From assembly GCA_050251055.1 (NCBI GenBank), contig JBFWNL010000004.1, positions 128,001 through 192,000 of the forward strand: 64,000 bases of DNA, written 5' to 3'. Shown here in pieces: positions 27,101 through 43,164 of the stretch (positions within the stretch are counted from its first letter, which is position 1; each line of letters begins with the position of its first letter). The translations under genes were made by a program, and so were the position numbers. The notes under the pieces were generated by a model that was not told the DNA's origin, did no database searches, and was given only the letters and a program-made list of their open reading frames with translations. This DNA is from Bacteriovoracia bacterium (lineage in GTDB: Bacteria > Bdellovibrionota > UBA1018 > JBFWNL01).

Positions 27101-27185
27101 GCTCAAGTGGTGGAATTGGTAGACACGCACGATTCAGGGTCGTGTGCCGAAAGGCGTGAAGGTTCGAGTCCTTTCTTGAGCACCA
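27101..27185 (+). tRNA. tRNA-Leu (anticodon CAG)
   Basis: GCTCAAG/CTTGAGC acceptor stem, anticodon arm CACGA-TTCAGGG-TCGTG, long variable arm, GGTTCGAGTCC T-arm and encoded CCA. Confidence 0.97.
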
Positions 27186-29712: not shown

Positions 29713-29739
29713 TCAAGTCCTCTGGGACACGGCCGATCC
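29713..29739 (+). promoter_or_regulatory. Putative sigma28 promoter of flagellin 1
   Basis: TCAA-N15-GCCGATCC about 110 nt upstream of the flagellin ATG. Confidence 0.7.
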
Positions 29740-29846
29740 GTGTAGTGAGCACAGGAATGGTCCTGATTTCAAGACGAAATCAAAAGGACGCCTGAGCCCC
29801 ATAATGGCCGAGGATTGGCCGGAATGGACCTTCAAGGAGGAAGGTT

Positions 29847-30683: not shown

Positions 30684-30780
30684 GAGTGAAGGAGATTAGA
30701 TGAAAGTTTAAACCCCAAACGTAGGCTGTTGCCTGCTTGTTTCCTGGAACGAAGGTTAAGACCCGTTCCGTCGCCGATGC

Positions 30781-31096
30781 GCGGAGTCGCGGAAGCGCCG
30801 GAGCGGGTCCCGAACCCCCGGGAATGGTTTGGGTCGTGCGGAAAAATGTAAACCACGCTCCGGAGCCCCGCGCTTGCGCGACCGGAATGTGACCGCGCGA
30901 AAAAAGGTTTTGCTTGGAAGCATGGGCGGTGCCTTGGCCGGCGCCCCGGTGCGGAGAAGCGAATAAACGGATCCCCGCGGGATGGTCCCGCGGGAATCCC
31001 CGTGCGAAATGCACGAACTGAGCAAGGATGCTGACCCACCGGAGGGAACCGGCGGGATTATCACGGAGGATATTGTATGACCAAGGGAGGCTAGTC
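30781..31096 (+). promoter_or_regulatory. GGA-hairpin-rich leader/intergenic RNA (putative multiple CsrA/RsmA sites)
   Basis: 19 GGA on the + strand versus 5 on the - strand in ~315 nt (hand count). Several sit in hairpin loops. Confidence 0.6.
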
Positions 31097-31933
31097 ATGG
31101 GTTTACGAATAGCAACGAACGTCACGGCGCTGAACGCGCAGAGACAAATGGCGAACACTCGCCGCATGTTGGACAACACGCTCGAAAAACTAGCGAGCGG
31201 CTCGCGCATTAACCACAGCGGCGACGACGCCGCGGGATTGGCGATTTCCGAAAACCTGCGTGCCCATATCCGTGGGATACGACAGGCGAAGCGCAACGGC
31301 ATGGACGGCATCTCGCTGATCCAGGTATCGGAAGGCGGCCTGAACGAGATTTCGAACATGCTCGTGAGACTTCGCGAACTGGCCATCCAAGGCGCTTCGG
31401 ACACGATCGGGGATACCGAGCGTCAGTTCGCCGACCGGGAATTCCAGTCGCTCAAGCAGGAAATCGACCGCATCTCCAACGCGACTTCGTTCAACGGCAC
31501 GCCGCTCTTGAACGGGAAAGCGGGGATCTTCGAGATCCAGGTGGGCATCCACAACAACCCTATCCTCGACCGCATTGTCTACAACGGGGAGAGGGCGGAC
31601 GCCTCACTGGACGCGCTCAAGATGGGCGGCGAATCCATCGCCACCAAGCAGGGCGCGCAGCTGACGCTTGCCGTGATCGACGACGCGCTCATCCGAGTGA
31701 ACAGCATCCGCGCCGATTTGGGCGCCATGCAGAACCGGTTGCAGTCGACGATCAACAACCTGGCGATCTACGACGAGAACCTCTCCACGGCGAACTCGCG
31801 CATCCGCGACACCGACGTGGCCGAGGAAGTCTCCGAGCTGACGAAGAACAACATCTTGATGCAAGCCGGGATCTCGGTGCTCGGACAGGCGAATAACACG
31901 AACTCGAGCGCGATGAAGTTGTTGCAGGCTTAA
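31097..31933 (+). CDS. fliC: Flagellin (short, 278 aa)
   Basis: GGAGG SD before the ATG at 31097 and flagellin N- and C-terminal motifs. Confidence 0.97.
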   Translation: MGLRIATNVTALNAQRQMANTRRMLDNTLEKLASGSRINHSGDDAAGLAISENLRAHIRGIRQAKRNGMDGISLIQVSEGGLNEISNMLVRLRELAIQGASDTIGDTERQFADREFQSLKQEIDRISNATSFNGTPLLNGKAGIFEIQVGIHNNPILDRIVYNGERADASLDALKMGGESIATKQGAQLTLAVIDDALIRVNSIRADLGAMQNRLQSTINNLAIYDENLSTANSRIRDTDVAEEVSELTKNNILMQAGISVLGQANNTNSSAMKLLQA

Positions 31934-32258: not shown

Positions 32259-32424
32259 CCCGGGCGAAGGATCGCCCGGGGATTTCGGCAAGCCCTGGGA
32301 AAAGGCGGGATCTCACCGATTTCCCATGGGTGAGGTTTCGTAACAACTTGGCGGCAAGGAAGCCGGCCGACGCTAGGGATAGCGCCGGTTGACTATGGAG
32401 GGTTGCACTTGAAAGGAGGCAACC
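32259..32424 (+). promoter_or_regulatory. Flagellin 3 leader with GGA-loop hairpins (putative CsrA sites)
   Basis: CCCGGGCG-AAGGAT-CGCCCGGG, CGGC-AAGGAA-GCCG and CGCTA-GGGA-TAGCG, with the SD enclosed in GGTTGC...GCAACC. Confidence 0.65.
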
Positions 32425-42822: not shown

Positions 42823-42865
42823 GCTCTCTTTTCGGATTATTGCGATGTGTCGCTTAGAGGAAAAA

Positions 42866-43030
42866 ACCCCCGGAATCGTGCGCTGTCAATTGGAGCCCTA
42901 GGTTTCAACGTGGCAGCCGTATGGCGGCTTTAGGCTTCCGAGTCAGGCTCGGCATGCTCACCACCGCGCAGGAACAGCCCCTAGGTAATTGACTGTAGGG
43001 TCCAATGTTATATTACGCAGACCCCGGGGT
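42866..43030 (-). ncRNA. ssrS: Probable 6S RNA
   Basis: ~165-nt rod: CCCCGGGGTCTGCGT pairs with GCGCACGATTCCGGGG (G-U pairs on the - strand), ATTGGACCCT pairs with AGGGCTCCAAT, then a central bubble and an apical CCGAG/CTCGG hairpin. TATACT -10 box 6 nt upstream and a 3' U-tract. Confidence 0.72.
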
Positions 43031-43164
43031 AAGACCAGTATACCCAAAACCAAAATCGAAAACCAACTACGCGAAATTCGCGCCAAGCTAAAATTTATCC
43101 CCGGCGGACTTCCCTGGAATTACCTGACTTTACACTACTGCTGAAAGGTGACAGACTTAGCTAA

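Follow-up and report, generated by a model that had tools for sequence, protein, structure and literature searches.

Flagellin locus and GGA enrichment

The window analyzed here is a 64,000-nucleotide (nt) stretch of a Bacteriovoracia bacterium genome (GCA_050251055.1, contig JBFWNL010000004.1, forward-strand positions 128,001 to 192,000), in which three flagellin genes (fla1, fla2, and fla3) lie in tandem on the plus strand (Table 1). Our subject is the 413-nt spacer between fla1 and fla2. Most of this spacer (30781-31097) had been singled out in a sequence-only reading as an RNA leader unusually rich in GGA, the core of the A(N)GGA motif recognized by the translational regulator CsrA, and had been proposed to be both a target and a sponge of that protein. 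We describe the GGA content of the spacer, a four-site module with a very short open reading frame (mini-ORF) directly before fla2, the distribution of this module among related bacteria, and what these features suggest about flagellin control.

A recount of 30781-31097 agreed with the figures given in the sequence-only reading, with 19 GGA trinucleotides on the plus strand and 5 on the minus strand (TCC when read on the plus strand). Dinucleotide-preserving shuffles of the same stretch gave an expectation of 10.5 ± 2.3, so that the observed number is 1.8 times the expected one, and none of 2,000 shuffles reached 19. Across all windows of 317 nt on both strands of the 3.77-Mb genome (mean 5.6 GGAs, standard deviation 2.4, maximum 20), this stretch is the third-ranked GGA cluster, the two denser ones being located inside ORF-covered sequence. 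None of 812 intergenic-like strand-segments reached 19 (maximum 16). The enrichment is hence real, both against shuffled sequence and against other intergenic regions, which were the two comparisons that had been suggested. Another GGA-rich intergenic-like segment (C2:397326-397794, 16 GGAs) was dropped, as it appeared to be partly coding and had no hairpin organization.

Table 1. Features of the flagellin locus and other annotated elements of the window (positions in the window; R1 is the covariance model described in the text)
Feature	Position	Strand	Basis or remark
tRNA gene	27101..27182	+	
Sigma-28-like promoter of fla1, TCAAGTCC-N11-GCCGATCC	29713..29739	+	Regex scan; 115 nt before ATG
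fla1 leader, class I, two GGA sites, without mini-ORF	29805..29846	+	
Flagellin 1 (fla1), 278 aa	29847..30683	+	Pfam Flagellin_N 2.6e-45, Flagellin_C 2.8e-24
Conserved element after the fla1 stop: AAAGTTT..., terminator-like hairpin (30721-30736), then TTGTTTCCTGGA	30699..30748	+	Terminator scan, blastn
Long hairpin, 11-bp stem, holding GCCGATGC and the GGAs at 30783, 30791, and 30800	30760..30809	+	Folds
Filler, non-conserved, GC-rich, strongly structured, 9 of 19 GGAs, including palindrome 30969-30999	30810..31016	+	
Hairpin 1 (HP1), AGCA-AGGA-TGCT	31021..31032	+	GGA 31026 in 4-nt loop, unpaired probability 0.98
Hairpin 2 (HP2), CCCACCGG-AGGGAA-CCGGCGGG	31035..31056	+	Loop GGA 31045, unpaired probability 0.87-0.89
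Hairpin 3 (HP3), TATC-ACGGAG-GATA	31059..31072	+	Presents GGAGGA 31065-31070, Shine-Dalgarno sequence of the mini-ORF, 6 nt 5' of its ATG
Mini-ORF, ATG ACC AAG GGA GGC TAG (MTKGG*)	31077..31094	+	Stop 2 nt before fla2 ATG
Flagellin 2 (fla2), 278 aa	31097..31933	+	Pfam Flagellin_N 5.2e-39, Flagellin_C 2e-25
fla3 leader, same module HP1-HP3	32330..32424	+	R1, E 2.6e-11
Flagellin 3 (fla3), 277 aa	32425..33258	+	Pfam Flagellin_N 8.5e-42, Flagellin_C 2e-25
6S RNA	42863..43033	-	Rfam RF00013, 67.4 bits

Four-site module before flagellin 2

Each GGA of the spacer was classed by its sequence context and by its pairing probability in two folds, one of the whole spacer and one from a putative start at 30790. 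Six of the 19 are in the A(N)GGA context, and five of these six are clustered within the last 80 nt before the fla2 start codon (31026, 31045, 31065, 31068, and 31086), where their unpaired probabilities are between 0.45 and 0.98. The three hairpins HP1, HP2, and HP3 and the Shine-Dalgarno sequence (SD) of fla2 (GGGAGG, 31085-31090) each carry A(N)GGA (31026, 31045, 31065, and 31086), at intervals of 19-21 nt. The four hairpins named in the sequence-only reading (31021, 31039, 31059, and 31078) are all present at these positions. A single CsrA dimer bridges two sites best when they are about 18 nt apart, and the form GCA-NGGA-UGC resembles the CsrA consensus obtained by in vitro selection (SELEX).

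Related loci were collected by a protein-anchored scan (75 metagenome and 77 genome loci, flagellins 61-89% identical to fla2) and mostly share the tandem order fla1-fla2(-fla3). Among 77 unique inter-flagellin spacers from these loci (94-943 nt long), the last 100 nt contained 5.56 GGA versus 0.56 TCC per 100 nt, with A at position -2 in 273 of 421 GGAs, whereas the distal parts contained 2.76 GGA versus 1.49 TCC per 100 nt and had no enrichment of A at -2. Leaders of the fla2/fla3 type (class II, defined below) were then represented by an alignment, A1, of positions -98 to +3 of 150 out of 180 non-redundant sequences, made with MAFFT and no structure fitting. Sequences entered A1 by their tblastn class and an identity of at least 70%, not by motif, and pairs were counted for a structure that we named ourselves. 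In A1, 73.6% of cells were paired (56.3 ± 0.7% when shuffled), and the covariation score was 0.365 versus 0.146 for the shuffled alignments, with 0 of 500 shuffles reaching it; sliding the pairing partners left 28-40% of cells paired and scores of 0.045-0.089. HP1 (helices 1-2 of A1) was 84-86% paired, with changes on both sides, and HP2 (helices 3-5) was 82-84% paired, with many compensatory two-sided changes. For example, one HP2 pair (columns 106/124) occurs as AU in 27 sequences, CG in 25, GC in 21, UA in 9, UG in 8, and GU in 6. Folding and covariation of orthologous leaders, which had been recommended as a check, thus yielded clear covariation for HP1 and HP2. Rows of A1 in which each of the four site columns holds GGA (85 of 150) likewise have a regular site spacing, with medians of 19, 20, and 20 nt. 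Both a loop GGA in a hairpin further upstream and a GGA overlapping the flagellin SD are present, and this arrangement is conserved with covariation.

To follow the module further, we used a covariance model, R1, whose structure consists of HP1 and HP2. In the genome carrying the window, R1 matched only the fla2 and fla3 leaders (E < 0.01). Altogether there were 130 matches from 82 sources; where their ends were checked, these coincide with a flagellin ATG. In an even sample of the phylum, 43 of 151 genomes contained a match, including 22/22 from the same order and 20/128 from elsewhere (among them 7 of 9 members of one other family); same-order matches arise partly by construction, owing to a possible overlap with the sequences used to build the model, while the distant ones do not. 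All four distant matches inspected lie directly before a flagellin ATG and contain mini-ORFs (MQGG*, MHGG*, MTGG*, and MQGG*). Judged by these sequence and structure matches, the module recurs before second- and third-position flagellin genes across Bdellovibrionota. A CCCATA motif found upstream of some modules was too rare to be of use (19/86 and 16/189).

A mini-ORF spanning the flagellin SD

The sequence-only reading missed the mini-ORF, whose codons 3-5 include the SD of fla2 and whose own initiation region bears, by sequence, a putative CsrA site (ACGGAGGA) in the HP3 loop. An equivalent mini-ORF, which begins with ATG, runs for 3-5 codons across the SD, and ends 1-5 nt short of the flagellin ATG, was found in 160 of 196 unique class II leaders, a count that uses a corrected choice of ATG in ATGAATGGA leaders. 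The same test in the other frames found 4 (+1) and 52 (+2). An SD-like pentamer is located 2-12 nt upstream of the mini-ORF ATG in 153 of the 160. Lengths of 9, 12, and 15 nt occurred in 18, 125, and 17 leaders, respectively, and the gap from the stop to the flagellin ATG was 1, 2, 3, 4, and 5 nt in 89, 33, 11, 24, and 3 leaders. Both the mini-ORF ATG and the stop were present in 159 leaders and neither in 23, and one was present without the other in 7 + 7. The encoded peptides include MNGG (60), MNGV (20), MTGG (13), and MDG (13), besides others.

A mini-ORF was also noticed by eye (MTTTRGG*) before a paralogous flagellin gene, around 60% identical, on another contig of the same genome (C7, near 73412, minus strand). 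It likewise embeds the SD and stops 1 nt before the ATG, and the leader concerned was not matched by R1.

Two classes of flagellin leader

Flagellin leaders of the window and its relatives can be divided into two classes. Class I (fla1-type) has the classical two-site form, with a hairpin GGCC-AWGGAU-GGCC followed by an SD in the loop of ACCUUC-AWGGAGG-AAGGU. The fla1 leader of the window follows it closely (hairpin TGGCC-GAGGAT-TGGCCG at 29805-29821; SD in the loop of ACCTTC-AAGGAGG-AAGGT at 29827-29846), as do nearly all fla1-type leaders of relatives. Class II (fla2/fla3-type) consists of HP1 (nnGCA-NGGA-UGCnn), HP2 with a variable 6-8-bp stem and a loop such as UAUGGAUA, HP3 with the loop CANGGAGGA, then ATG-AAN-GGA-GGC-TAA/TAG and the flagellin ATG. 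In the fla3 leader of the window, HP1 is GGC-AAGGAA-GCC and HP2 is CGCT-AGGGAT-AGCG, and a 6-bp hairpin (GGTTGC...GCAACC) presents the SD in its loop. There, however, TTG replaces the mini-ORF ATG and CAA replaces the stop, so that no in-frame stop is left. This TTGAA.GGAGGCAA variant recurs in several relatives. The expectation of the sequence-only reading that flagellin messages usually carry about two CsrA sites hence describes fla1 well and fails for fla2 and fla3, each of which carries four.

The two classes also differ in their upstream signals. Of 86 regions upstream of fla1-type genes in relatives, 34 contained a sigma-28-like TAAAG-N11/12-NCCGAT (median distance to the ATG, 120 nt), while class II spacers contained a sigma-28-like site in 14 of 194 cases, mostly inside the upstream gene. 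Because such sites are rare and some spacers are shorter than 100 nt, fla2-type genes may often be read through from fla1.

Elements after flagellin 1 and the distal spacer

The fla1 stop is followed by about 65 nt, including the element at 30699-30748, that are 75-85% identical in 26 related loci (one short match reaches 96%). The element of about 50 nt (AAAGTTTRACC-hairpin-TTGTTTCCTGGA) was also seen in loci L014, L020-L024, L091-L096, L113, and others, and its sequence is conserved beyond the needs of an ordinary terminator. In Bdellovibrio bacteriovorus HD100, APsRNA4, an attack-phase small RNA of 98 nt, is reported to begin 30 nt downstream of the stop of the major flagellin gene (PMC3627812), and it may be a counterpart of this element. 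Next comes the long hairpin at 30760-30809, a divergent copy of a hairpin known from relatives, where 45 of the 72 unique segments that follow the anchor TTTCCTGG contain it. In relatives it is long and covarying, with the apex CCAWGAYGG and stems of 10-20 bp that differ between loci (e.g., L114:2147+, L119:2097+, and L125:2082+). The plus strand was the more stable one in 47 of 71 comparisons, and the long hairpin had no match in Rfam. The weak sigma-28-like motif reported in this region does exist (GCCGATGC, 30773-30780). The -35-like TTAAGACC is located 9 nt upstream of it, compared to 11-12 nt in the fla1-type promoters of relatives, and the motif occupies the apical part of the hairpin.

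The filler that follows (30810-31016) had no counterpart in a blastn search of 152 related loci except for one 20-nt match, and a DNA search of the spacer against the genomes of 40 relatives returned only two short, weak matches. In Rfam searches, the spacer had no match, whether the gathering threshold or E values up to 10 were applied, and four related loci gave one chance match only. Upstream of 31017 there are 12 GGAs. Two of them are unpaired in the whole-spacer fold (30916 and 30953) and four in the fold from 30790 (30916, 30953, 30791, and 30821), and none of these unpaired GGAs has A at -1 or -2. The sixth A(N)GGA of the spacer, at 30969, is fully paired inside the palindrome at 30969-30999. 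Ten of the 19 GGAs are CGGA, an abundance expected for G+C-rich stems. Overall, the distal GGAs look incidental, being mostly by-products of G-rich stems in lineage-specific filler. A scan of the genome under strict criteria for clustered A(N)GGA in hairpin loops detected no more than four sites per 150 nt (seven loci) and no CsrB-like cluster, with a sensitivity limited by the fact that the scan misses the fla2 leader itself, in which HP3 and the SD hairpin fail its criteria.

The palindrome is a near-perfect 14-bp one (GGATCCCCGCGGGA / TCCCGCGGGAATCC) with a 3-nt loop and a terminator-like score on the minus strand; its full word is unique in the genome, and its 10-mer core occurs 14 times. 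On the minus strand, two ORFs of 119 and 102 aa extend across the spacer; lacking both a Pfam match and conservation, they were rejected as genes.

CsrA and FliW genes and other flagellin genes of the genome

The genome encodes six flagellins and flgL. A search for csrA and fliW, the absence of which would have spoken against any CsrA-based explanation, located both genes next to each other on contig C14, downstream of flgK and flgL (csrA, PF02599, 90.9 bits; fliW, PF02623, 125.5 bits). The predicted CsrA has 74 aa, and its best solved relative is 5dmb_D, which we take to be part of a CsrA-FliW complex; residues 2-70 are aligned, including the C-terminal extension. By this match, the protein is predicted to be a CsrA of the FliW-binding kind. 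In the order flgK-flgL-csrA-fliW, csrA precedes fliW; in Bacillus subtilis, fliW comes before csrA.

Two further tandem flagellin genes are located on contig C4 (around 21.2-23.0 kb, minus strand), with sigma-28-like sites (TAAAGTAA-N11-ACCGATCT and TCAAGTAT-N11-GTCGATAG) approximately 210 and 280 nt upstream. Given these distances, flagellin leaders in this genome seem to be long as a rule. The regions upstream of the C4 pair showed no GGA module.

Interpretation of the fla2 leader

We consider it probable that the sequence at 31017-31096 is a translational operator of fla2 within a CsrA-FliW-flagellin circuit, built from four putative CsrA sites and the mini-ORF. The four GGAs in hairpins and SD beside the start codon are conserved with covariation, which makes a CsrA target the best reading of the leader, and here the sequence-only reading is upheld. 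In this operator, CsrA dimers would bridge neighboring sites and block the entry of ribosomes at both SDs. Once the filament exports flagellin, free FliW would remove CsrA from the RNA. Ribosomes could then initiate at the mini-ORF, translate through the flagellin SD, and, after terminating 2 nt short of the flagellin ATG, re-initiate at that codon, a step that would amount to translational coupling as in iraD/idlP of Escherichia coli.

Some observations weigh against this operator model or temper its support. RNAalifold returned no consensus on the gappy A1 alignment, and HP3 is weak, with 54% of cells paired in the fixed columns of A1 and a stem of at least 4 bp around the GGA in 84 of 123 leaders (68%, versus 49% with shuffled flanks). 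The sequences are also related to one another by descent, so that the shuffle counts and the Fisher p value for the joint presence of start and stop overstate the support. Leaders that have neither start nor stop mostly share the TTGAA.GGAGGCAA form and may represent few events. A simpler version of the model keeps the four-site operator and leaves the mini-ORF untranslated, its ATG and stop being structural or inherited baggage, with CsrA occluding the SD as in hag. We regard this as rather unlikely, although it has points in its favor: in the window, a 5-bp stem (AUGAC...GUCAU) joins the mini-ORF ATG to the flagellin ATG, which makes an RNA-structure reason for its conservation possible, and the SD GGA is in a hairpin loop with a stem of at least 4 bp in 106 of 159 mini-ORF leaders (a figure given without a shuffle control). 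Class I leaders and 36 of the 196 class II leaders, that of fla3 in the window included, function without a mini-ORF. Selection at the peptide level was also not seen beyond the constraint imposed by A(N)GGA and GGAGG. Since the second codon is itself constrained by A(N)GGA, no selection on the peptide is apparent, and if the mini-ORF matters, it would be the act of translation that counts. An untranslated mini-ORF fits less well with the SD-like pentamer at proper spacing before nearly every mini-ORF ATG, with ORF lengths that differ by multiples of three nt, unlike the distance from the stop to the flagellin ATG with its single-base variation, with the loss of start and stop together, and with the retention of the ORF in distant families despite changed surrounding sequence.

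The proposal that the leader of about 315 nt, or a processed RNA derived from it, is a CsrB-like sponge whose roughly 19 sites titrate CsrA globally appears improbable to us. It draws on a GGA density that no other non-coding stretch of the genome equals and on a strongly structured spacer (-184.2 versus -160.4 ± 7.0 kcal/mol for shuffled sequence, z = -3.42). In addition, the GGA excess is not nil in the distal part of the window's spacer (14 versus 8.3 ± 2.1 in dinucleotide shuffles, p ~0.01), and distal parts in relatives have 246 hairpin-loop GGAs versus 174 ± 11.5, to which HP1 copies beyond the 100-nt cut may contribute. Flanking RNAs are known from B. bacteriovorus HD100, where, according to the transcript maps given in PMC3627812, the flagellin gene Bd0606 has a FliA-type start 164 nt upstream, and the major flagellin gene Bd0604 (562,130-562,954) is flanked by two attack-phase small RNAs (sRNAs): APsRNA3 (561,854-561,981, with a FliA promoter), 276-149 nt before the gene, and APsRNA4 (562,984-563,081, 98 nt), 30-127 nt after it. 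With such a long leader and sRNAs beside flagellin genes in HD100, an RNA derived from the leader is conceivable here as well. A sponge, however, should expose some 7-22 A(N)GGA sites, and six of the 19 GGAs are in that context, five of them start-proximal and the sixth paired; the two to four distal GGAs that are unpaired lack the context altogether. Hairpin-loop GGAs in the distal part of the window number 5 versus 3.0 ± 1.6 expected (p = 0.17). The array is neither conserved, 30810-31016 having no counterpart in the 152 related loci, nor part of a family described in Rfam, and a terminator scan found no intrinsic plus-strand terminator between the putative sRNA region and fla2. Finally, a review notes an anti-correlation between fliW-type systems and the control of Csr sRNAs by BarA-UvrY (PMC7652899). 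Neither the 19 GGAs as a CsrB-like array nor the sponge of about 18-22 sites is thus borne out.

It is very improbable that CsrA has no part in the module and that a purine-rich composition, with two strong SDs or ribosome standby sites, simply boosts the synthesis of an abundant protein. The sense strand is indeed rich in G and A (115 G versus 85 C, 71 A versus 46 T, at 30781-31097), and GGAGG is also an SD. In the distal parts of relatives' spacers, most of the asymmetry between strands can likewise be put down to composition: 561 GGA and 304 TCC were observed, and shuffles retained 505 ± 15 GGA and 273 TCC. On the other hand, HP1 and HP2 are not SDs, yet their loop GGAs are kept by covarying stems; moreover, A at -2 is enriched in the module, the spacing of about 20 nt is conserved, and csrA and fliW are located in the flagellar operon.

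With the operator model preferred, the observation behind this study is partly confirmed, and the interpretation first attached to it is partly supported. A titration of CsrA by flagellin mRNA is possible in a modest sense, by analogy with Campylobacter jejuni. We would add, as a tentative suggestion that we hold to be less likely than not, that the module may be an undescribed, phylum-wide device, in which four CsrA sites in a 20-nt register and a translated mini-ORF (M-x-G-G-stop) encoding the flagellin SD give a switch-like release of translation and form the main CsrA sink. In such a device, FliW would free the first SD, and the ribosome on the mini-ORF would strip CsrA from the second SD and re-initiate on flagellin. 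Four high-affinity sites per leader, on two to three tandem and abundant mRNAs, could then be the main CsrA sink of the cell in a phylum without CsrB-type sRNAs, and the distal GGAs of the window would add low-affinity capacity. These ideas are directly testable in cultivable Bdellovibrio or Bacteriovorax. The module also provides a new cis-regulatory motif for annotation in the manner of Rfam, for which the covariance model R1 has been built.

Comparison with known systems

Among the forms of the Csr system, control of flagellin by CsrA and FliW is regarded as ancestral, and it has been studied in few lineages, always with two-site leaders. A four-site leader with an SD-containing mini-ORF would join the occlusion seen in hag and the coupling seen in iraD, which have so far belonged to separate systems. 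Little is known about Csr in the predator B. bacteriovorus according to PMC13443453, where the CsrA of this species is described as repressing a B. subtilis hag reporter. Our literature search, which did not extend to subscription journals, found no flagellin leader with four sites or an upstream ORF (uORF) and no CsrA-titrating flagellin mRNA in Bdellovibrionota.

The genome studied here resembles the hag and flaA systems in having a FliW-type CsrA, with fliW in the flagellar operon, and in combining a hairpin-loop GGA upstream with a GGA over the SD. The leaders of hag and flaA are presented with two stem-loop sites and without a uORF in the accounts of them given in PMC13443453 and PMC4894983, and the fla1 leader of the window has exactly this two-site form. 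Leaders of the fla2/fla3 type differ from it in their four sites, about 20 nt apart, and mostly in the mini-ORF that contains the flagellin SD.

A closer parallel for the mini-ORF may be the iraD leader of E. coli, which has four CsrA sites and is repressed entirely via a short coupled uORF, idlP, as the review PMC7652899 relates from Park et al. 2017. Both leaders have four sites and a short ORF, equipped with an SD of its own and ending beside the main start, with putative CsrA sites over the uORF start. They differ in that idlP has 27 codons and slightly overlaps iraD, whereas the mini-ORF before fla2 is of the 3-5-codon kind and stops 1-5 nt before the ATG. CsrA leaves the iraD initiation region unblocked, while the fla2 SD inside the mini-ORF is itself a GGA site. 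Furthermore, the flagellin system is of the FliW type rather than controlled by sRNAs, and coupling is here a prediction.

The spacer shares with CsrB, CsrC, RsmY, and RsmZ a large number of GGAs, a structured RNA, and a length of a few hundred nt. Unlike these sRNAs, it has no apparent boundary of a separate transcript, matches nothing in Rfam, and is not conserved in its distal part, and it offers only five well-formed sites, all beside the start codon.

In C. jejuni, the flaA mRNA is both repressed by CsrA and able to titrate it (Dugar et al. 2016, PMC4894983), and the titration was demonstrated genetically for a 45-nt leader with two sites. That a flagellin message may act as target and sponge at once, an arrangement that the sequence-only reading did not know to be described in this lineage, was hence already in print for C. 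jejuni, and for Bdellovibrionota we likewise found nothing. A flagellin mRNA that is abundant and carries high-affinity CsrA hairpins could, as in C. jejuni, serve as a CsrA sink. The difference is that the evidence here comes from sequence, and that the capacity of such a sink in the window would rest on the four-site modules of fla2 and fla3, rather than on the 19 GGA triplets of the spacer.

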